A stretch of 31,155 bases of DNA from a virus (IMGVR_UViG_3300029473_000204); one strand, 5' to 3'. Positions 2,829 to 24,493 are shown, numbered from the stretch's first letter. The notes: generated from the letters alone by a model not told the origin. Program-made: numbers and translations.

Positions 2829-3130
2829 TGTCCTGTTCTCATTCAGTTGTATTACTGAATAACGCCTTAAAAATCGCTGTTATGAAAAATGGCGATTTAT
2901 CTCTTATTCAACTTGGTCTTGATAAAGAAAAACGCGAAATAACTGAGTCTGTTATCGCGATTTATCAGAACGAATTAAATCTCCTGTCTGATGTGGTCAA
3001 TTTACTTGTTAAACGCGCTGTATTTCACAAGCAAATCTCCTCCGTGGATGAACTGACGAAATTAACGACAGAAATTGCCAGCTATTGCGCTGATGAATTT
3101 AAAAAACTTAACGACAAAAGGAGCTGGTAA
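2825..3130 (+). CDS. Hypothetical early protein (P2 orf81 position)
   Basis: Start overlaps the preceding stop (ATGA). No motif recognised. Confidence 0.55.
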
Positions 3131-3354
3131 TGCCGGACAACGTAGATTTTATTCAGGAACAACAGGCTGAATTACTGGAGCGCCAGATTAACGCGGCAAG
3201 AGTAAAACATTGCGGTGCTTCTGCGCTGGTTTGCGAAGAGTGTGACGCGCCAATACCTGCTGCCCGTCGTGCGGCTTATCCGTCAGCCACGCGTTGTGTT
3301 TCCTGTCAGTCAGTCTTTGAAGCAAAAAACAAACATTACCGGAGAATGGCATGA
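3130..3354 (+). CDS. TraR/DksA-family C4 zinc-finger protein (P2 orf82-like)
   Basis: CEECDAPIP...(17 residues)...CVSCQ gives a four-cysteine zinc finger of the DksA/TraR type, in a 74-aa protein. Confidence 0.7.
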   Translation: MPDNVDFIQEQQAELLERQINAARVKHCGASALVCEECDAPIPAARRAAYPSATRCVSCQSVFEAKNKHYRRMA

Positions 3355-3626
3355 GCATTCGTATTGAAATTGGCGAACGTTATGTCGTTACCAGTGACAG
3401 CTTTCAGTTTATTCTCCACGAGAAAAAGAGAGCGGAAAGCGGTAAAAACGCCGGTCAGGAATGGCTGGCGGTGGTTGGTTATTACCCGAAATTAAGCCAG
3501 CTCGTTTCCGGCCTGATGCATCACGATATTCTGATCGGAAGCGCAAAGTCTTTTGCTGATTTAAACGCGCAGGTTGAGCAACTCAGCAGGCGTTGTTCAG
3601 AGGCTTTTGGCTCATATGGCCGTTAA
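3351..3626 (+). CDS. Hypothetical early protein (P2 orf83 position)
   Basis: ORF coupled to the upstream gene (ATGA overlap). Its 3' end overlaps the A start. Confidence 0.5.
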   Translation: MSIRIEIGERYVVTSDSFQFILHEKKRAESGKNAGQEWLAVVGYYPKLSQLVSGLMHHDILIGSAKSFADLNAQVEQLSRRCSEAFGSYGR

Positions 3627-5739
3627 AGCCTCCGGGCGTTTTGTCCCTCCGTCAGCATTTGCTGCAGGCACCGGTAAGGCGTTTACCGGTGCTTATGCAT
3701 GGAACGCGCCACGCGAGGCCGTCGGGCGCGAAAGACCCCTTACACGTGACGAGATGCGTCAGGTGCAAGGTGTTTTATCCACGATTAACCGCCTGCCTTA
3801 CTTTTTGCGCTCGCTGTTTACTTCACGCTATGACTACATCCGGCGCAATAAAAGCCCGGTGCACGGGTTTTATTTCCTCACATCCACTTTTCAGCGTCGT
3901 TTATGGCCGCGCATTGAGCGTGTGAATCAGCGCCATGAAATGAACACCGACGCGTCGTTACTGTTTCTGGCAGAGCGTGACCACTATGCGCGCCTGCCGG
4001 GAATGAATGACAAGGAGCTGAAAAAGTTTGCTGCCCGTATCTCATCGCAGCTTTTCATGATGTATGAGGAACTCAGCGATGCCTGGGTGGATGCGCATGG
4101 CGAAAAAGAATCGCTGTTTACGGATGAGGCGCAGGCTCACCTCTATGGTCATGTTGCTGGCGCTGCACGTGCTTTCAATATTTCCCCTCTCTACTGGAAA
4201 AAATACCGTAAAGGGCTGATGACCACGAGGCAGGCATATTCTGCCATTGCCCGTCTGTTTAACGATGAGTGGTGGACTCATCAGCTTAAAGGCCAGCGTA
4301 TGCGCTGGCATGAAGCGTTACTGATAGCTGTCGGGGAGGTCAATAAAGACCGTTCTCCTTATGCCAGTAAACACGCTATTCGTGATGTGCGTGCGCGCCG
4401 CCAGGCAAATCTGGAATTTCTTAAATCGTGTGACCTTGAAAACAGGGAAACCGGCGAGCGCATCGACCTTATCAGTAAGGTGATGGGCAGTATTTCTAAT
4501 CCTGAAATTCGCCGGATGGAGCTGATGAACACCATTGCCGGTATTGAGCGTTACGCCGCCGCAGAGGGTGATGTGGGGATGTTTATCACGCTGACCGCGC
4601 CGTCAAAGTATCACCCGACACGTCAGGTCGGAAAAGGCGAAAGTAAAACCGTCCAGCTTAATCACGGCTGGAATGATGAGGCATTCAATCCAAAGGATGC
4701 GCAGCGTTATCTCTGCCGTATCTGGAGCCTGATGCGCACGGCATTCAAGGATAATGATTTACAGGTCTACGGTTTGCGTGTCGTCGAGCCACACCACGAC
4801 GGAACGCCGCACTGGCATATGATGCTTTTTTGTAATCCGCGCCAGCGTAACCAGATTATCGAAATCATGCGTCGCTATGCGCTCAAAGAGGATGGCGACG
4901 AAAGAGGAGCCGCGCGAAACCGTTTTCAGGCAAAACACCTTAATCGGGGCGGTGCTGCGGGATATATCGCGAAATACATTTCAAAAAATATCGACGGCTA
5001 TGCACTGGATGGTCAGCTCGATAACGATACCGGTAAGCCGCTTAAAGATACTGCCGCGGCTGTTACCGCATGGGCGTCAACGTGGCGCATCCCGCAATTT
5101 AAAACGGTTGGACTGCCGACAATGGGGGCTTACCGTGAACTACGCAAATTGCCTCGCGGCGTCAGTATTGCTGATGAGTTTGACGAACGCGTCGAGGCTG
5201 CTCGCGCTGCCGCAGACAGTGGTGATTTTGCGTTGTATATCAGCGCGCAGGGTGGGGCAAATGTCCCGCGCGATTGTCAGACTGTCAGGGTTGCCCGTAG
5301 CCCGTCGGATGATGTTAACGAGTACGAGGAAGAGGTCGAGAGAGTGGTCGGCATTTACGCGCCGCATCTCGGCGCGCGTCATATTCATATCACCAGAACG
5401 ACGAACTGGCGCATTGTGCCGAAAGTTCCGGTCGTTGAGCCTTTGACTTTAAAAAGCGGCATCGCCGCGCCTCGGAGTCCTGTCAATAACTGTGGAAAGC
5501 CTGCCAGCAGTGATACTTCGTTACCGGCTCCCACGCCTTCTGAACATGCCGCAGCAGTGCTTAATCTGGTAGATGACGGTGTTATCGAATGGAGTGACCC
5601 GGAGGTTGTGAGGATTCTAATGGTAGTGTTAAAAGGAGGGGAAGCATACAAAATCAACAACGAAGACGATTATCACCGCAAAGTGCCGAACAAGTCAGCT
5701 CAGTGGCTAAAACAAAGAATAAATAGAGTGGGTAACTAA
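3616..5739 (+). CDS. A: Replication initiator endonuclease A (rolling-circle, HUH-type), about 707 aa
   Basis: N-terminus MAVKASGRFVPPSAF matches the P2 A start as I recall it. GYIAKYISKNIDGY carries the active-site tyrosines and HWHMMLF the metal-binding histidines. The track ORF starts upstream at 3574, so the true start is ambiguous between 3574 and 3616. Confidence 0.85.
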   Translation: MAVKASGRFVPPSAFAAGTGKAFTGAYAWNAPREAVGRERPLTRDEMRQVQGVLSTINRLPYFLRSLFTSRYDYIRRNKSPVHGFYFLTSTFQRRLWPRIERVNQRHEMNTDASLLFLAERDHYARLPGMNDKELKKFAARISSQLFMMYEELSDAWVDAHGEKESLFTDEAQAHLYGHVAGAARAFNISPLYWKKYRKGLMTTRQAYSAIARLFNDEWWTHQLKGQRMRWHEALLIAVGEVNKDRSPYASKHAIRDVRARRQANLEFLKSCDLENRETGERIDLISKVMGSISNPEIRRMELMNTIAGIERYAAAEGDVGMFITLTAPSKYHPTRQVGKGESKTVQLNHGWNDEAFNPKDAQRYLCRIWSLMRTAFKDNDLQVYGLRVVEPHHDGTPHWHMMLFCNPRQRNQIIEIMRRYALKEDGDERGAARNRFQAKHLNRGGAAGYIAKYISKNIDGYALDGQLDNDTGKPLKDTAAAVTAWASTWRIPQFKTVGLPTMGAYRELRKLPRGVSIADEFDERVEAARAAADSGDFALYISAQGGANVPRDCQTVRVARSPSDDVNEYEEEVERVVGIYAPHLGARHIHITRTTNWRIVPKVPVVEPLTLKSGIAAPRSPVNNCGKPASSDTSLPAPTPSEHAAAVLNLVDDGVIEWSDPEVVRILMVVLKGGEAYKINNEDDYHRKVPNKSAQWLKQRINRVGN

Positions 5740-5870
5740 ACTCGCTTTGTTTTAGTTTGTGAATATATGAGACTGGACGCTGAAACCTGACGAGTAGGTT
5801 TGTGAGAATGATGATCTATTTGCATTGAGATAATATGTTAAGTTATAGGCTCTTTCTGCGTTAGTGCACT

Positions 5871-5897
5871 TCCCCCCCCAACCGTAGCAGGGGGAGG
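5871..5897. terminator. GC hairpin between convergent genes A and the defence operon (possible bidirectional terminator)
   Basis: CCCCCCCC-aaccgtagca-GGGGGAGG stem-loop in the gap between the two convergent genes. No clear T-tract, so this is weak. Confidence 0.25.
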
Positions 5898-5904
5898 TAA
5901 AGGG

Positions 5905-6759
5905 TTAAGCAAATCTTAATATTTCTTTAGGTATGGGAGTTGCACAAGCTAATCTTCGTCTTTCTAACATTAAAGGATCCTTAGTAATTTTCAAATTATT
6001 ATTGACGGATAAATGTGATTTTAAGGATGACAACCAGAGCTTAATGAACTCAAAGACATATTTACCCTTAATGGCTCTTTCGTACGGTAATTCATTGAAG
6101 AATGAAATCAATGCTTTTACATCCTCTGAGTCTTCATTTACTTCATAATCTATTAACGTAGCATTATCCTTGATTGAGATATTTTTATACTCAATATTGA
6201 TAACTGAAGATATTTTATTGTAGAATCTTGTTTTCCCGTTTGCATTATGATTTACAAATAGAGGTCGGCACAATTCTTTTGCTAACTTTTGAAATAGTTG
6301 GAAGTCGGACTCAAAATCTTTTTTGATACGCGCCAATAAATCAGACTGTGTTATATCCATTTTGAACTCGTCCTTTAAATAGCTTTTTGTAGAGGAAGAG
6401 TTAATAATATAGTTTTCAATTGAATAACATGAAAGAGTAACAATGTTATCAGAATTATGCTCAAATAGGTCAAAGTCATGATCTACAAAAAAGTAGCAAT
6501 TGCTTAATATTTCTTGATCATTATGTTGAATTGCATGCTCGTATAACTCAATTATCTGTTTTTTTCCTTTCGCCACAAGGTGGCCTGCATTAGCATACTC
6601 TGGATTGTGTTTCATCCATTCATCGTATACAGGGTAATCATCAACACCTTCAAAAACAAAAATTTTATCGAAGGATGATGTTTTAAGTAATATCTCTTGC
6701 TTTAACGGATTTCTCGAAAAAGCTTCTTTTTTCATAGTATGTAGGAGATTGTTACTCAT
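5905..6759 (-). CDS. TOPRIM-like putative nuclease effector (DUF4435/AriB-like or RloB/AbiLii-like), 284 aa
   Basis: Translation has an acidic glutamate (KIFVFEGVDD) followed about 55 residues later by a DxD motif (FFVDHDFD), the arrangement of TOPRIM catalytic residues. No cysteine or histidine clusters, which argues against an HNH fold. Start overlaps the ATPase stop by 1 nt. AT-rich. Confidence 0.6.
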   Translation of the reverse strand: MSNNLLHTMKKEAFSRNPLKQEILLKTSSFDKIFVFEGVDDYPVYDEWMKHNPEYANAGHLVAKGKKQIIELYEHAIQHNDQEILSNCYFFVDHDFDLFEHNSDNIVTLSCYSIENYIINSSSTKSYLKDEFKMDITQSDLLARIKKDFESDFQLFQKLAKELCRPLFVNHNANGKTRFYNKISSVINIEYKNISIKDNATLIDYEVNEDSEDVKALISFFNELPYERAIKGKYVFEFIKLWLSSLKSHLSVNNNLKITKDPLMLERRRLACATPIPKEILRFA

Positions 6760-8225
6760 CAGACACTACCCTTTCGTACTTTCATAGCAGTTGCATAAGG
6801 GTCTAGCTCATTGTCAAATATGAATGGTGAATGCGTTATGGCAATTATTTGCCTAACATTTTCACCCGCATTCAAATCTGGTAATATCATCCGTTGCCAC
6901 TCTATCGATAACGAAAGTTCCGGTTCATCTATTAATATTATTTTAGGGGTATTATCATTAAGATAAATCGTAGCCATTAGCGAAATTACTTGTTTCTCAC
7001 CTGAAGATAAGTCATTAAGAGAGATGCGATCTCCTGTATATGTATCTTTTACGATAACTTCTAATCTTTGAGGATCAAATTTTAGAGATTTAGAATCACC
7101 TGCTGATGAAAGATATTTATCACAAACAGCAACGAATTTCTCAATTTTTGACTCTTGCTCTTTTGTTTCTTGTATAACCGAGTTTAATTGAGTTAAAAAA
7201 TATTTCAAGTAAGTGATGTTTTTTATTTCATCTTTGTTATATAGCAATTTAAGTGAATCAATTAAAGATTTCTTTTTTGATTCAGATGCTCTTTTTTCTC
7301 GCAAATTTGTACCAGTATCCTCAACTCGATTAAGGAATCTTTCCAAATCCTCTATAGAAGGTAGTGCATTTTGTTCTTTAGCTATCCGCTCATTGTTACC
7401 ATATTTAATTAAATCCTCAAGCATTTTGGCACTTAAAGATCTATAGCCAAGGTTTGATGTCCTTTCAATTTCTAAAGTTAGACCTTTTAAAGCATCTTCG
7501 ACATCCTTTAACCCATATGAAATGCCATCACGTTGTAGTTTCATCCCTCTTTTTCTACCAAACATGCGAGGGTGAAGATTTTCTCTTTCTTCCCTAGGTG
7601 TCGTCTCAAAACTTTTTTCTACCCTTCGATATGTTGGTAGAAATATAACGTCTAAATCCCTAAGCGCTTCAGCAACCACTCTAAAATTATTATTTTTAGA
7701 GTAATGCATTTTTAAATTATGCTGTTCCTTATTCTTCATTTTATTAACTATGTTGTCTTTTAGTTCTCTTAGAAAATGATTTATATAATCCTTTGGGTAT
7801 TTTACGGTATTATATAGGTCATTGACTAAAGCATCATCATTGAATTCATTTTGCTTCGAGTCAATTAAAGTCTTCGCAAACTTGGTAATATCACGATCAT
7901 CCCAAAATGACTCATTAAGAGAAAATCTTTCATTGAGGAATGCTTTTATTTCACCAAAAGGTATTAAAGATGCTCTTTCATTTTTAATTTCAACCTCCTC
8001 ATGATCAAGAATCTTTATGAATATTGATTTAAAATCAATTCTCATAAGGTTTGTAAAATCTTGCTCGAGAAGAAGTCTTATAGCATTAAGTATGGTTGTT
8101 TTTCCTGCGCCGTTCTCGGATACGAAAACTGTTGTCTTGCCTTTCATTTTCATAGTTATATCTTTATAACCATGAACTCCTGTCATTCTAAAATATTCAA
8201 TCGGGTAATTATTACGTGTAGTCAT
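6759..8225 (-). CDS. ABC-type (AAA_15/AAA_21, OLD/SMC-like) ATPase, candidate defence sensor (AriA-like or AbiLi-like), 488 aa
   Basis: Walker A VSENGAGKTTILNAIR near the N-terminus, a long charged helical insert, then ABC signature LSSGEKQ, Walker B ILIDEPELSLS and H-loop IAITHSP near the C-terminus. AAAGGAG ribosome-binding site 6 nt upstream of the ATG at 8225. Confidence 0.7.
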   Translation of the reverse strand: MTTRNNYPIEYFRMTGVHGYKDITMKMKGKTTVFVSENGAGKTTILNAIRLLLEQDFTNLMRIDFKSIFIKILDHEEVEIKNERASLIPFGEIKAFLNERFSLNESFWDDRDITKFAKTLIDSKQNEFNDDALVNDLYNTVKYPKDYINHFLRELKDNIVNKMKNKEQHNLKMHYSKNNNFRVVAEALRDLDVIFLPTYRRVEKSFETTPREERENLHPRMFGRKRGMKLQRDGISYGLKDVEDALKGLTLEIERTSNLGYRSLSAKMLEDLIKYGNNERIAKEQNALPSIEDLERFLNRVEDTGTNLREKRASESKKKSLIDSLKLLYNKDEIKNITYLKYFLTQLNSVIQETKEQESKIEKFVAVCDKYLSSAGDSKSLKFDPQRLEVIVKDTYTGDRISLNDLSSGEKQVISLMATIYLNDNTPKIILIDEPELSLSIEWQRMILPDLNAGENVRQIIAITHSPFIFDNELDPYATAMKVRKGSV

Positions 8226-8439
8226 TATGTCTCCTTTCGTCTACATTACTAAAATCAGTTAGTCAATTTTCTTAAAAACTAAAGTAACAGAAGCTTTCGA
8301 TATATTTGAACAGCTAATTCATACAGCAAAGTCAAACTTAATTCAACTATCCATCAGGCGGTGCACGATTCGTACAGCGCAACCCACAGTTGATTCAACT
8401 CGGATTATAATAATTGCAGATATTTTTTGCGATTTCCAG

Positions 8440-9100
8440 TGGCTACTAGCCATTTTATTGTGATCCCTAAACCACCTCCTGGGGAGGTGGTGATTGATCC
8501 TGTAAGGCTATAGCCTGAAGAATGCCCATGTCGGAATATCTCTGCTTACTCACCACAAGTAAAAGGAGACAAACTGACATGGGGTTTTACAGAAGTTCAT
8601 CATATGTATATTGGCGTTGCAAATATCACATAGTCTGGACGGCAAAGTACCGTTTTAGGATCCTGAGGGATAAATTGGGCAAGGAGCTGTACAGAACCAT
8701 CTATATTCTTTGCGGAATAAAAGATTGTGAGGTTCTGGAGTTAAATGTACAGGCAGATCATGTGCATCTTGTCGTAATAGTGCCGCCAAAAATCTCAATA
8801 TCTACTCTGATGGGGCACCTGAAAGGTCGCAGTGCAATCAGACTCTACAATCGATTCCCGCATATCAGGAAGAAGTTATGGGGAAACCATTTTTGGTCGT
8901 GGGGTTACTTTGTTGATACGGTAGGCGTGAACGAAGAAATTATCAGACGATATGCGAGGTATCAGGAAAAGATGGAGCAAACACATGAACAGCAGATGGA
9001 GTTGCTAGAGTAGAAAACGGAATATGACATTCGCCCCCCTTATAGGGGGCATTCTGAAAAGCCACCTCCTCAGGAGGTGGTCTTTTACTTCTACTGTGTT
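8440..9100 (+). mobile_element. IS200/IS605-family insertion sequence (IS200-like); boundaries approximate
   Basis: A Y1-transposase gene is flanked by near-identical perfect hairpins CCACCTCC-tgg-GGAGGTGG (about 8477-8495) and CCACCTCC-tca-GGAGGTGG (about 9061-9079), plus a CCCCCC-ttata-GGGGG hairpin at about 9045-9060. Exact ends cannot be fixed without a reference copy. Confidence 0.6.
8579..9013 (+). CDS. tnpA: IS200/IS605-family transposase TnpA (HUH Y1 transposase), about 144 aa
   Basis: WRCKYHIVWTAKYR near the N-terminus, HUH motif HVHLVV, and a C-terminal tyrosine region RRYARYQ. AAAAGGAGA ribosome-binding site before the ATG at 8579. The track ORF from 8522 is an upstream extension. 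Confidence 0.8.
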   Translation: MGFYRSSSYVYWRCKYHIVWTAKYRFRILRDKLGKELYRTIYILCGIKDCEVLELNVQADHVHLVVIVPPKISISTLMGHLKGRSAIRLYNRFPHIRKKLWGNHFWSWGYFVDTVGVNEEIIRRYARYQEKMEQTHEQQMELLE

Positions 9101-20541: not shown

Positions 20542-21145
20542 TTCGCGCCTGCTGCCGACCGGCTCATCACCGCTTGAAGTCGCCGCCGCAAGAGCCTGTG
20601 CGGAAATTGAAAAAACGCCGGTCAGTATTCGTGAGCTGTGGAACCCGGATACCTGTCCGGCAAATCTGCTGCCGTGGCTGGCGTGGTCATTTTCGGTTGA
20701 CCGCTGGGATGATAAGTGGCCGGAAGCGACAAAACGCGCTGTTATCCGCGATGCGTATTTCATTCACTGCCATAAGGGCACTATTGGTGCGATTCGCCGT
20801 GTGGTGGAGCCGCTCGGCTATCTGATTGAGGTGAGGGAGTGGTGGCAGCTCAACGAGGAGCCGGGGACGTTCCGTATCGTTGTTGGCGTGCTTGAGCAGG
20901 GTATTACCGAAGAAATGTATCAGGAGCTGGAGCGTCTCGTTGCTGATGCAAAACCGGCAAGCCGCCATCTGACGGGACTGGCTATCAGTTTAAGTACAAC
21001 CGGCAACATTTTTGCCGGTGCGGGATGCTATCACGGTGACGCCCTGACGGTTTATCCCTACACCCCGGAGGCCATTATTGTCGGAGGGGATTATTTCCCG
21101 GCCTCGGCCATTCATTTAATTGATAACCTGAGAGTAAACGCATGA
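20534..21145 (+). CDS. I: Baseplate/tail-fibre attachment protein I, 203 aa
   Basis: N-terminus MSDSRLLPTGSSPLEVAAA matches P2 I as I recall it. Somewhat longer than P2 I (about 176 aa). Confidence 0.8.
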   Translation: MSDSRLLPTGSSPLEVAAARACAEIEKTPVSIRELWNPDTCPANLLPWLAWSFSVDRWDDKWPEATKRAVIRDAYFIHCHKGTIGAIRRVVEPLGYLIEVREWWQLNEEPGTFRIVVGVLEQGITEEMYQELERLVADAKPASRHLTGLAISLSTTGNIFAGAGCYHGDALTVYPYTPEAIIVGGDYFPASAIHLIDNLRVNA

Positions 21146-22317
21146 CAGTGAAATACTACGCCATTCTGACTAATCAGGGCGCAGCACGGCTGGCTAACGC
21201 GACGATGCTCGGCAGTAAGCTGAATCTGACGCAAATGGCCGTTGGTGATGCGAATGGTGTCTTGCCGACCCCAGACCCGGCACAGACAAAACTGATTAAC
21301 CAGAAACGCATCGCGCCGCTGAATCTTCTGAGTGTTGACCCGAACAACCAGAGCCAGATTATTGCGGAGCAAATCATCCCTGAGAACGAGGGCGGATTCT
21401 GGATCCGTGAGATTGGGCTTTATGATGATGAAGGCGTACTCATTGCGGTGGCGAACTGCCCGGAAACGTACAAACCGCAGTTGCAGGAAGGCAGTGGTCG
21501 TACCCAGACTATCCGCATGATTCTGGTTGTCACGAATACCGAAGCCATCACGCTGAAAATCGACCCGTCGGTGGTACTGGCGACCCGTAAATACGTGGAT
21601 GATGAAGTCCTGGAATTAAAGCTGTATGTGGATGACCAGATGAGGAACCACATTGCCGCACAGGATCCTCATACCCAGTATGCGCAGAAACATAATCCGA
21701 CATTTACCGGAGAACCAAAAGCGCCGACGCCTGCCGCAGGAAATAACACCACGCGGATTGCGACTACTGCGTTTGTTCAGGCCGCTATTACCGCTCTGAT
21801 TAACGGTGCGCCAGCCACGCTGGACACACTGAAAGAAATTGCCGCGGCCATTAACAATGACCCGAAATTCAGCACCACCATTAACAATGCGCTGTCAGGT
21901 AAGCAGCCACTGGATGAGACGCTGACTCATTTGAGTGGAAAGGATGTTGCCGGTCTTCTCGCATACCTTGGTTTGGGAGAATTATCTCTGGCTGGCACTG
22001 CATCGGGTGTCATTGGCCTGAATGGGTATGTAACGATCCCGTTAATTATTTCAGGTTCCCGGAGAACACTGATTATTCAGTGGGGGCAGGCGAGATTTGG
22101 TGGGTCTGGTGGTGAAGATGCCGGATATCTTAACGATTTTCCTTTTGCCTTTCCGTCAGCATGTTATGGAATGATAGTTAGTCATGTGGGGCATACACCT
22201 TCAGGCGCAGGAATCCTGTCGGCTTCTGCAATTACATCAAATCAGTTCCGCGGTTTTTCAAGCATAGCGACTGCTGCAAACGCTGTATTAGGTCGTTATA
22301 TCGCTATAGGGGTGTAA
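21142..22317 (+). CDS. H: Tail fibre protein H, 391 aa; the C-terminal roughly 112 aa lie inside the invertible segment
   Basis: N-terminus MTVKYYAILTNQGAARLANA is the conserved P2 H N-terminal region. It is much shorter than P2 H (669 aa), and the C-terminal region is AT-richer and downstream of the crossover site. Confidence 0.85.
   Translation: MTVKYYAILTNQGAARLANATMLGSKLNLTQMAVGDANGVLPTPDPAQTKLINQKRIAPLNLLSVDPNNQSQIIAEQIIPENEGGFWIREIGLYDDEGVLIAVANCPETYKPQLQEGSGRTQTIRMILVVTNTEAITLKIDPSVVLATRKYVDDEVLELKLYVDDQMRNHIAAQDPHTQYAQKHNPTFTGEPKAPTPAAGNNTTRIATTAFVQAAITALINGAPATLDTLKEIAAAINNDPKFSTTINNALSGKQPLDETLTHLSGKDVAGLLAYLGLGELSLAGTASGVIGLNGYVTIPLIISGSRRTLIIQWGQARFGGSGGEDAGYLNDFPFAFPSACYGMIVSHVGHTPSGAGILSASAITSNQFRGFSSIATAANAVLGRYIAIGV
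21956..21981. repeat. Left crossover site for the DNA invertase (hix/gix-like), inside H
   Basis: TTCTCGCATACCTTGGTTTGGGAGAA. Its last 14 nt (TTGGTTTGGGAGAA, 21968-21981) are the exact reverse complement of 23819-23832, and it encodes LGLGE at the constant/variable junction of H. Confidence 0.65.
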
Positions 22318-22318
22318 T

Positions 22319-22756
22319 ATGTTTTATAGTCCATCTTTAAACATTTTTGTGAATCCTGCACTTAAGGATGATTACATTAATGCAAATTCATGGCCAGATG
22401 ATGCTCTGGCTGTCAGTGACGATGTTTATAATGAATTTGCAATAAATACGCCCCCAGATGGCAAAATTCGTGTTGCAGGAGAAAATGGATTACCCACATG
22501 GGCACTAATACCTTCACCATCACATGAAGAACTTATTCAACAGGCAGAATCAGAAAGGCAATTATTGCTTAATCAGGCCAACGAATACATGAACAGTAAA
22601 CAATGGCCCGGTAAAGCCGCTATTGGTCGTCTGAAAGACGAGGAACTGGCGCAATATAATTTGTGGCTGGATTACCTGGACGCACTGGAGCTGGTTGATA
22701 CCTCCAGTGTGCCAGATATTGAATGGCCTACGCCTCCGGCAGTTCAGGCCAGATGA
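22319..22756 (+). CDS. G: Tail fibre assembly chaperone (Tfa; P2 G equivalent), 145 aa
   Basis: Immediately after H. C-terminus LWLDYLDALELVDTSSVPDIEWPTPP is typical of Tfa chaperones. Confidence 0.8.
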   Translation: MFYSPSLNIFVNPALKDDYINANSWPDDALAVSDDVYNEFAINTPPDGKIRVAGENGLPTWALIPSPSHEELIQQAESERQLLLNQANEYMNSKQWPGKAAIGRLKDEELAQYNLWLDYLDALELVDTSSVPDIEWPTPPAVQAR

Positions 22757-23330
22757 CATCCGGCGCTGTGCTGGTATCTGTTGCCGTCACCGCGTCAATG
22801 TAATCCAGCACAGTGTTAAGTCGGGTGGTCTCTGCCTGCATCAGCTTCCGCCCGGCCTGCAATTTAAGTTGAATCAGACTAATGGAAGCCATTGCAGTAT
22901 TAATCAGTGACTGACGCTGTACTTCTGCCGCGTCTACTGCGGCGCTATGCTGTGCCTCAGTATCGGTCACCCATTTCTTACCATCCCATTTATCGAATGG
23001 CGTTAACGGGGCGATAGTGGTTGTATTTTCAGGATAATCACCCGGAGCTGTGATTTCTTTGGCGTCTCCCGTTTCGGTTTTATAGACGATTTCACCGCGA
23101 TGGTCTGGCACATATTCCCATGAGTTAAAATCTGCAGAACGGCAGATTGCATAACCAGCTTTATGTGTAACTGGTGCATCTAAACAAGAACATGCCGGGA
23201 TACCGACGCCAACCGCAAGATATTCAGTTGATGTGGAAATATATTCCCGCGTTTCACCATCATAATTATAAATGGTAATGTCTCCCGCTTTTATGGCAAT
23301 GAGTTCGTTATTTAATACGGCTTTATTCAT
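22728..23330 (-). CDS. Alternative tail fibre assembly chaperone (Tfa'), inverted orientation, 200 aa
   Basis: C-terminus NTVLDYIDAVTATDTSTAPDVIWPELPEA is a Tfa-type tail. It converges on, and overlaps by 29 bp, the plus-strand tfa. Confidence 0.75.
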   Translation of the reverse strand: MNKAVLNNELIAIKAGDITIYNYDGETREYISTSTEYLAVGVGIPACSCLDAPVTHKAGYAICRSADFNSWEYVPDHRGEIVYKTETGDAKEITAPGDYPENTTTIAPLTPFDKWDGKKWVTDTEAQHSAAVDAAEVQRQSLINTAMASISLIQLKLQAGRKLMQAETTRLNTVLDYIDAVTATDTSTAPDVIWPELPEA

Positions 23331-23872
23331 CAGGCAGCCCTCACGATATAGTTAAATGCAATATTCCGTGGACGGGTTTCATTTATCCCATATGCTGTTG
23401 TTCTCTGATTCCCGACAAAATATCCATTTGGATTAGAAGATACAGAATAATCATCAAAATCAAGTGGGCTATCAGCACCCGGCGTCAGGCTTGCAATATA
23501 TCCTCTTCCCATAACTTCTGATGCTGGTATTTCTTTTGTACGATAATCACTAACTCTGAAGAGCTGCCCTTGGTGGGTGTGTGATTCCACTCCTCCATTC
23601 TGAAGACTTAGCAAGGCACGTACAGCATCAATACCACGCCCGTCATCCCAGCCACGAATAAACTCACCACGTAAATCAGGCAATTTATTTGTCGGATAAG
23701 CCTTTGCCAGTTCCGGGTATTCTTCAGCAGAAAAAGCGGCACCGTTGCATTTCAGCCAGCCTGTTGGCGGAGTGGCTGAAGGCCACGGAACAGGCACCCC
23801 AACCGGTAATGCAGAGCCTTCTCCCAAACCAACGTTTATGAAAATGCAGAGATAACGGGCAAGTGGCATCAT
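23330..23872 (-). CDS. Alternative tail fibre C-terminal (receptor-binding) cassette, currently silent; the first roughly 18 codons of the track ORF are probably not translated
   Basis: Minus-strand ORF with no promoter or ribosome-binding-site context. The right crossover site lies inside its 5' end, encoding the same GLGE junction in inverted orientation. Inversion would fuse residues GSALPVGVPVPWPSATPPTGW... to the constant part of H. Confidence 0.65.
   Translation of the reverse strand: MMPLARYLCIFINVGLGEGSALPVGVPVPWPSATPPTGWLKCNGAAFSAEEYPELAKAYPTNKLPDLRGEFIRGWDDGRGIDAVRALLSLQNGGVESHTHQGQLFRVSDYRTKEIPASEVMGRGYIASLTPGADSPLDFDDYSVSSNPNGYFVGNQRTTAYGINETRPRNIAFNYIVRAA
23819..23844. repeat. 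Right crossover site for the DNA invertase (hix/gix-like)
   Basis: TTCTCCCAAACCAACGTTTATGAAAA resembles the hixL/gix consensus (TTCTTGAAAACCAAGGTTTTTGATAA as I recall it), with imperfect dyad symmetry. It is the inverted partner of 21956-21981. Confidence 0.65.
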
Positions 23873-23899
23873 CTCCGGTTTTTATTCAGGGGGGTGCTC

Positions 23900-24493
23900 A
23901 TGCTTATTGGCTATGTACGCGTATCAACAAATGACCAGAACACGGAATTGCAGCGTAACGCGCTGGAGTGCGCGGGATGTGAGCGGATTTTTGAGGACAA
24001 AATCAGCGGCACGAAGTCCGACAGGCCGGGACTGAAAAAACTGCTCAGGACATTATCGGAGGGGGATACACTGGTAGTCTGGAAGCTGGACCGGCTGGGA
24101 CGTAGTATGCGGCATCTGGTCATTCTGGTTGAGGAGCTGCGCGAACGCGGCATTAATTTTCGCAGCCTGACGGATGCCATTGATACCAGCACGCCGATGG
24201 GACGTTTTTTCTTTCATGTGATGGGTGCCCTGGCTGAAATGGAGCGAGAACTCATTGTCGAGCGGACACGCGCCGGACTGGAAGCGGCCAGAGCCAAAGG
24301 GCGTATTGGTGGCAGACGTCCGAAGCTCACCGCGAGTGAGTGGGAACAGGCAGGACGGTTGCTGGCTGCGGGTGAATCACGTCAACGCGTGGCGCTGATT
24401 TTTGATATTGGCCTGTCCACGCTCTATAAAAAATTCCCCTCATCAGCGGCAAAGAATAAATTGTGTCATCCCTTAGCCAACCGGGACAAATAG
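23900..24493 (+). CDS. Serine recombinase, DNA invertase of the Hin/Gin/Cin/Pin family, about 197 aa
   Basis: N-terminus MLIGYVRVSTNDQNTELQ carries the catalytic serine motif of resolvase/invertase enzymes; GRRPKL and a C-terminal HTH follow. It lies directly next to the crossover site. The track start at 23894 is a GTG two codons upstream. Confidence 0.85.
   Translation: MLIGYVRVSTNDQNTELQRNALECAGCERIFEDKISGTKSDRPGLKKLLRTLSEGDTLVVWKLDRLGRSMRHLVILVEELRERGINFRSLTDAIDTSTPMGRFFFHVMGALAEMERELIVERTRAGLEAARAKGRIGGRRPKLTASEWEQAGRLLAAGESRQRVALIFDIGLSTLYKKFPSSAAKNKLCHPLANRDK

Follow-up and report, generated by a model that had tools for sequence, protein, structure and literature searches.

A highly probable PARIS ariA-ariB module as cargo of a P2-like prophage

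What kind of system does a P2-like prophage carry in the place where phage P2 harbors old and tin? The question is raised by the viral sequence IMGVR_UViG_3300029473_000204, which was analyzed over its whole length of 31,155 nucleotides (nt; in the following called the window) and in which two minus-strand open reading frames (ORFs) are located between gene A and cos. The upstream gene (8225..6759), here designated ariA, encodes an ABC/SMC-type ATPase of 488 amino acids (aa) and 56.8 kDa. The downstream gene, ariB (6759..5905), encodes a DUF4435 protein of 284 aa and 33.3 kDa with an N-terminal Toprim nuclease core. At their junction, GTC TGA TG AGT, the stop codon TGA and the start codon ATG have one base in common (6759). 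The guanine-cytosine content is 0.31-0.36 over approximately 5500-8500, compared to 0.50-0.60 in both flanks. The left-flank ORF is P2 gene A (Phage_GPA, E-value 3e-123), and on the right an IS200-type tnpA, cos, the portal gene Q and the terminase gene P follow in this order. The annotation of the right flank was taken from the near-identical DNA of Escherichia coli GN4143 and enterotoxigenic E. coli (ETEC) B7A, the corresponding sequences of which are 100% and 99.7% identical, respectively. The slot between gene A and cos/Q is the P2 old/tin hotspot. With high confidence, we assign the gene pair to the phage anti-restriction-induced system (PARIS), as an ariA-ariB module for abortive infection which is carried as cargo by a P2-like prophage and would protect the lysogen.

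A preliminary description of the locus had been made from the sequence alone. It proposed two translationally coupled genes, overlapping at 6759, for proteins of about 56 and 33 kDa in the tin/old hotspot, with Walker A, signature, Walker B and H-loop motifs in the larger protein and an E...DxD Toprim arrangement in the smaller one, and it named PARIS as first choice. Coordinates, strand, junction, sizes, location and motifs were all confirmed, and the choice of PARIS was upheld by profile, structure and literature tests. The searches against Pfam families and PADLOC models and the structure comparison with AriA and AriB, which the description had suggested, are included in the following; all of them agreed with the assignment.

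Evidence for an ariA-ariB Module

For the definition and detection of PARIS, Rousset et al. (2022) used a MacSyFinder rule which asks for an AAA_15 match of at least 32 bits or an AAA_21 match of at least 27 bits, adjacent to a DUF4435 match of at least 27 bits. The larger protein reaches 63.8 bits with AAA_15 (gathering cut-off 32.1) and 62.4 bits with AAA_21 (gathering cut-off 27), the smaller one 52.9 bits with DUF4435 (cut-off 27), and the genes overlap by 1 nt, so that the pair falls under this rule. Among the PADLOC models, the best match was AriA for the first protein (PDLC04164, 2e-31) and AriB for the second (4e-18), the matches of the latter being confined to AriB and AriAB models. 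The fused AriAB model is covered collinearly by both proteins, with residues 387-472 of AriA aligned to profile positions 292-379 and residues 16-148 of AriB to positions 415-550. A search of the cassette proteins against NCBIfam gave nothing above the family cut-offs.

All motifs of an ABC-type ATPase are present in AriA: Walker A NGAGKT (38-43, with K42), the Q-loop LPTYRR (196-201), the signature LSSGE (406-410), Walker B ILIDEPE (430-436, with the glutamate E434) and the H-loop ITHSP (463-467, with H465). The ATPase half-domains are separated by a helical insert. Within 42 homologs with identities down to 36%, the residues K42, S407-Q412, D433-E436 and I463-P467 are invariant. In AriB the motifs FVFEGVDD (E37, D41) and FFVDHDFD (D93, D95) were found; D93, H94, D95, D97, E115 and N116 are invariant in 25 homologs, and E37 and D41 nearly so. 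Judged from sequence, E37, D41, D93, D95 and E115 are the predicted metal-binding residues. A Foldseek search of the PDB with the predicted AriA structure (predicted local distance difference test score, pLDDT, 79) returned AriA chains exclusively as the top 14 matches (E-values 6e-14 to 5e-11; template modeling score 0.57-0.64, normalized to the target), followed by retron/Septu PtuA at 1e-8 and weaker. For the 284-aa protein, AriB was the sole strong structural match. AriA is an intact ABC-type ATPase with the AriA fold, and AriB is an intact DUF4435/Toprim protein with the AriB fold in which all five of the predicted metal-binding acidic residues are kept. The features by which PARIS members are recognized are found together in this pair: an ATPase head of the ABC type into which helices are inserted, intact ATPase catalytic motifs, a Toprim core within DUF4435 bearing the two-metal acidic set, and co-inheritance of AriA and AriB, of which fused AriAB forms exist elsewhere.

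The same combination of 488 and 284 aa with a one-base overlap was detected in Klebsiella, where P2 genes for capsid and terminase lie alongside, and in Serratia marcescens, where the two genes by themselves make up a chromosomal island. In K. variicola, a more distant relative with an AriB of 55% identity comprises 481 and 289 aa with an 11-nt overlap and adjoins a HEPN gene and a colicin. ariA and ariB are translationally coupled and co-inherited across Enterobacterales. The ratio of nonsynonymous to synonymous substitutions (dN/dS) amounts to 0.04-0.10 for both genes in comparison with the Klebsiella and Serratia copies, which points to strong purifying selection on both. Relatives of AriB, grouped in 56 clusters, derive throughout from Enterobacterales, Aeromonas and the like, and relatives of AriA reach Xanthomonas and Burkholderia. 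Three E. coli genomes out of 5,426 complete ones carry the cargo, in P2-like prophages at two different sites (one next to pflA, the other next to yegR); in these three unrelated strains both ORFs are intact, with an identity of 99.7-100%. None of 50,697 deposited phage genomes was found by megablast to contain the cargo, and only 230 base pairs (bp) of cos-proximal backbone matched. As the Pfam scores exceed the gathering cut-offs about twofold and the pair recurs with identical sizes and overlap in Klebsiella and Serratia, the observation is far beyond chance.

For comparison with experimentally tested representatives, Table S2 of Rousset et al. (2022) supplied the sequences of the E. coli O42 and B185 systems. 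PARIS-1 of O42 has the same gene order and gene sizes; its AriA is 34% identical to the AriA described here over 417 aa (E-value 8e-57) and its AriB 27% identical over 248 aa (E-value 5e-22). Both AriB proteins pass Pfam DUF4435, and the two systems have FVFEG-DDY, FFVD-D and a GKYV-F...WL helix in common. They differ in that the AriB of the window is 24 aa shorter at its C-terminus and in their location, O42 PARIS-1 being encoded in the P4-satellite hotspot (pFR84/pFD237) and the present pair on a P2-like phage. By sequence, the pair is closest to O42 PARIS-1 among the tested systems and, at about 30% identity, probably forms a separate subclade. PARIS-2 of B185 (8UX9, 8V45-8V49; Burman et al., 2024, PMC11464382; Belukhina et al., 2025, PMC12409363), from which all structures and the knowledge of the mechanism derive, displays the same folds of both subunits at an identity of 13-17%. 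The Walker B glutamate E393 of B185 AriA corresponds to E434, and the catalytic set E26/D30/D88/E90/E122 of B185 AriB to E37/D41/D93/D95/E115. In B185, ATPase mutations of AriA abolish defense.

In hmmscan, B185 AriB itself misses Pfam DUF4435 (PF14491) and matches just DUF3226 with an E-value of 0.03; the Pfam profile alone would therefore overlook B185-like AriB proteins.

Weighing the Assignment

Several observations weigh against the assignment of the cassette as a functional PARIS, and they concern the distance to B185 as well as the expression of the genes. Sequence similarity to B185 AriA is limited to the ATPase motifs, and to B185 AriB it is insignificant. Neither phmmer with AriB nor hmmsearch with the 25-sequence AriB profile retrieved an AriB from the PDB sequences, and hhalign of this profile against B185 AriB stayed below significance. 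The link to B185 is therefore drawn from structure, from the Pfam and PADLOC profiles and from O42 PARIS-1. Since MAFFT put the N-terminus of B185 AriB in a wrong place, the equivalence of E26/D30 with E37/D41 is based on the common [VF]EGxxD motif and not on a significant alignment. Of the B185 AriB residues with a described function, neither the tweezers lysines K60/K64, which act on the anticodon loop, nor R28/R31, which contact AriA, are recognizably conserved here in an alignment of low confidence, and an acidic helix (E-G-V-D-D-Y-P-V-Y-D-E) takes the place of the equivalent B185 helix. Finally, hexamer formation, trigger and target transfer RNA (tRNA) of the present pair are extrapolated from B185.

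On the side of expression, O42 PARIS-1 conferred defense only when over-expressed from Ptet and not from its own promoter (Rousset et al., 2022). The region upstream of the cassette (8226..8467, minus strand, about 240 bp), which contains the presumed promoter and the Shine-Dalgarno sequence, is approximately 85% conserved with the upstream DNA of the Klebsiella P2-like remnant L003. A scan of its minus strand upstream of ariA gave no sigma-70 consensus match of at least 9 out of 12 positions. Between the conserved TTGACT and the Shine-Dalgarno sequence, the E. coli copy (8226-8270) is 7 bp shorter than L003 (5480-5535), and this deletion may have altered promoter spacing and ariAB expression. 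An IS200 element lies 245 bp upstream of ariA. Because O42 needed an inducible promoter, no consensus promoter was found, 7 bp are deleted and an IS200 element is located upstream, expression from the native promoter is uncertain.

These points could be read such that the cassette is PARIS by descent and confers no defense here, as a poorly expressed cargo or one silenced by the IS200 element and the changed spacer. Its rarity, in the complete E. coli genomes as well as at 13 of 18,150 hotspot loci, fits with this reading. The coding sequences speak otherwise: the ORFs are intact and nearly identical in three unrelated strains and at two attachment sites, all catalytic residues are retained, and the low dN/dS values are accompanied by a strong Shine-Dalgarno sequence (AAGGAG, 7 nt ahead of the ariA ATG) and by retained translational coupling. 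A silent or decaying copy is thus disfavored, and we regard it as unlikely.

Other readings assign the genes to another family. An AbiL-type pair (AbiLi with AbiLii/RloB) or a RloA/RloB pair, which the preliminary description had kept as an alternative, has the same architecture, in which a Toprim-like partner comes after an ABC-type ATPase, but another effector family; HHpred results in Table S3 of Rousset et al. list secondary DUF3226 and RloB matches for tested AriB proteins, and B185 AriB has the weak DUF3226 match given above. The AriB of the window, however, exceeds the DUF4435 gathering score, has zero Pfam matches to RloB (PF13707) or DUF3226 at E-values up to 0.1, and finds AriB and AriAB only among the PADLOC models and AriB as the sole strong structural match. 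Such a pair was ruled out on these results and is hardly conceivable here.

A DNA-degrading system of the Septu/retron PtuAB or Gabija/OLD type, consisting of an ATPase with an HNH nuclease or of a fused Toprim DNA nuclease which attacks phage DNA, is very improbable. AriA scores well with many PtuA profiles (8e-23), besides its structural likeness to PtuA; the partner, however, is a DUF4435 protein without an HNH match in Pfam, and the NCBIfam PtuA model, which has a cut-off of 500, is matched with 63.6 bits. Likewise, OLD and GajA have a Toprim core similar to that of AriB, and the same locus is occupied by Old in phage P2. P2 Old (class 1/2 OLD) and GajA, however, are single fused ATPase-Toprim polypeptides as opposed to the two separate ORFs found here, and they lack the DUF4435 dimerization region and are nucleases for DNA instead of tRNA. 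Their scores are far weaker than those of AriA and AriB (GajA profile 1.4e-11 against 2e-31 for AriA), and no helicase gene, such as gajB of Gabija, is present between A and Q. An identity as 'AbiEii toxin', which is merely the Pfam name of AAA_21, was dropped on the profile and structure results.

Proposed Mode of Action and Prior Record

As a PARIS module, the cargo in the cos-proximal gpA-gpQ hotspot would shield the lysogen, and hence the prophage, against competing phages. In it, AriA would act as sensor and scaffold and AriB as effector. By analogy with B185, a trimer of AriA dimers would keep AriB monomers inactive close to the ATP sites. Binding of a small, acidic protein of the phage to disordered AriA pore loops of positive charge may then, together with ATP, cause the release of AriB. 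The released AriB would dimerize and nick selected host tRNAs in their anticodon stem-loop, by which translation would be halted and the infected cell arrested before phage production. In B185, the triggers are Ocr of T7 and Ptr1/Ptr2 of T5, and the tRNA targets of AriB are Lys-UUU, Thr-UGU and Asn-GUU (PMC11464382, PMC12409363). Ocr is sensed there by basic disordered pore loops; AriA of the window contains a similarly basic and disordered loop (199-237), which is predicted with low model confidence and in which 11 of the 39 residues are Arg or Lys.

Burman et al. (PMC11464382) divide PARIS into 11 clades and describe co-evolution of AriA with AriB, along with poor conservation of the pore residues that sense the trigger. 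The present pair and B185 belong to different clades, and the pore residues of B185 AriA are not conserved in the pair. Owing to this divergence, the trigger and tRNA specificity of B185 are not transferable to the pair; being of a different lineage nearer to O42 PARIS-1, it probably differs in trigger range and tRNA targets. We put forward tentatively, and as somewhat short of probable, that the P2-borne lineage represents a functionally distinct PARIS; a DUF4435 proper, the kinship with O42, the acidic helix after the glutamate and the absence of recognizable K60/K64 equivalents suggest it. If so, it could sense a class of phage proteins unlike Ocr and Ptr, cut tRNAs (or another RNA) other than the Lys/Thr/Asn set, and be tuned to spare P2 while excluding rivals, and its comparison with B185 would expose determinants of trigger and substrate specificity.

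The type of system, its home in the P2/P4 hotspots and the same gene pair are already part of the literature, and with respect to kind and locus the novelty is nil. Rousset et al. (2022) surveyed the same hotspot from gpA to gpQ, and the two PARIS systems which they tested derive from P4 satellites. Their Table S5A lists WP_042815548, WP_001297422 and WP_001297419 (IS200 tnpA and the pair) in the P2 hotspot; these accessions are the proteins of the B7A locus. Row 149 of Table S5B records 13 occurrences among 18,150 loci with the comment 'PARIS', and the AriB printed there is identical to that of the window except for R178K. The 'protein 1' of this row (MKLTELTINGIGG..., ~395 aa) is an ATPase other than the AriA of the window, and Table S5A pairs AriB with WP_001297422. 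The mismatch is probably an artifact of picking representatives; as row 149 prints a different ATPase, the pairing was taken from the accession triples of Table S5A.

In RefSeq the two proteins are labeled merely as 'AAA family ATPase' and 'DUF4435 domain-containing protein'. The assignment to PARIS helps to annotate the genome and to predict how sensitive strains like ETEC B7A are to phages, as the cargo slot of the prophage carries an abortive-infection system that looks working. The residual value of the locus lies in a divergent PARIS lineage which can be compared with B185 and O42 for trigger and tRNA specificity.

Prophage Context and Neighboring Features

Between the cassette and cos, an insertion sequence of the IS200/IS605 family is located on the plus strand (8468..9085). 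Its tnpA (8579-9013, plus strand; Y1_Tnp, 2.3e-37) is annotated as such in GN4143 and B7A, and the element is flanked by hairpins at 9061-9081 and at about 8470-8493. It is missing from the otherwise collinear remnant L003, which holds the cassette, and is present in every E. coli copy listed by Rousset et al. (2022). The element is a passenger outside the defense system. A segment of 74 bp over the hairpin of the IS end (8447-8520) recurs at about 240 unannotated sites in E. coli genomes with approximately 96% identity, 233 of them on plasmids; one match, on pSA186_5, adjoins IS26 and a TnpB fragment. These matches are probably orphan IS200/IS605 ends.

On the opposite side, the left breakpoint of the cargo lies inside the 3' end (5615-5739) of gene A (3616-5739). 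Residues 1-673 of gpA are 97% identical to P2-type gpA (765 aa) and are followed by 34 unrelated codons of low guanine-cytosine content; with 707 aa, the protein is without the customary last ~92 residues. RefSeq treats gene A of GN4143 and B7A as a pseudogene, either frameshifted or incomplete. The spacer between ariB and gene A (5740..5904) contains a C8/G8 stem-loop just past the ariB stop codon, and the terminator scan located a terminator-like hairpin of gene A on the plus strand (5721-5752).

Scans of the cargo region and of the whole window yielded neither Rfam matches nor tRNA genes; accordingly, neither an RNA component nor an escape tRNA is evident. As the prophage lacks tRNA genes, it has no obvious means to counter, by tRNAs of its own, the tRNA-cleaving systems that it or others carry.

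Other cargo can occupy the same slot. In the deposited phage NC_041848.1, which is P2-like and derives from E. coli O157:H43 T22, the region between gpA and gpQ (6058-8200; 3059-5201 of the extracted locus L008) holds the cytolethal distending toxin genes cdtABC and no defense system.

Far from the cassette, positions 21142-24493 of the window form an invertible tail-fiber module. It is composed of the fiber gene H (21142-22317), a gene for an assembly protein (22319-22756), an inverted gene for an alternative assembly protein (22728-23330, minus strand), an inverted C-terminal fiber segment (23330-23872, minus strand) and a gene for a serine invertase (23894-24493; Resolvase and HTH_7). The module represents a Mu/P1-type host-range switch carried by a P2-like phage.

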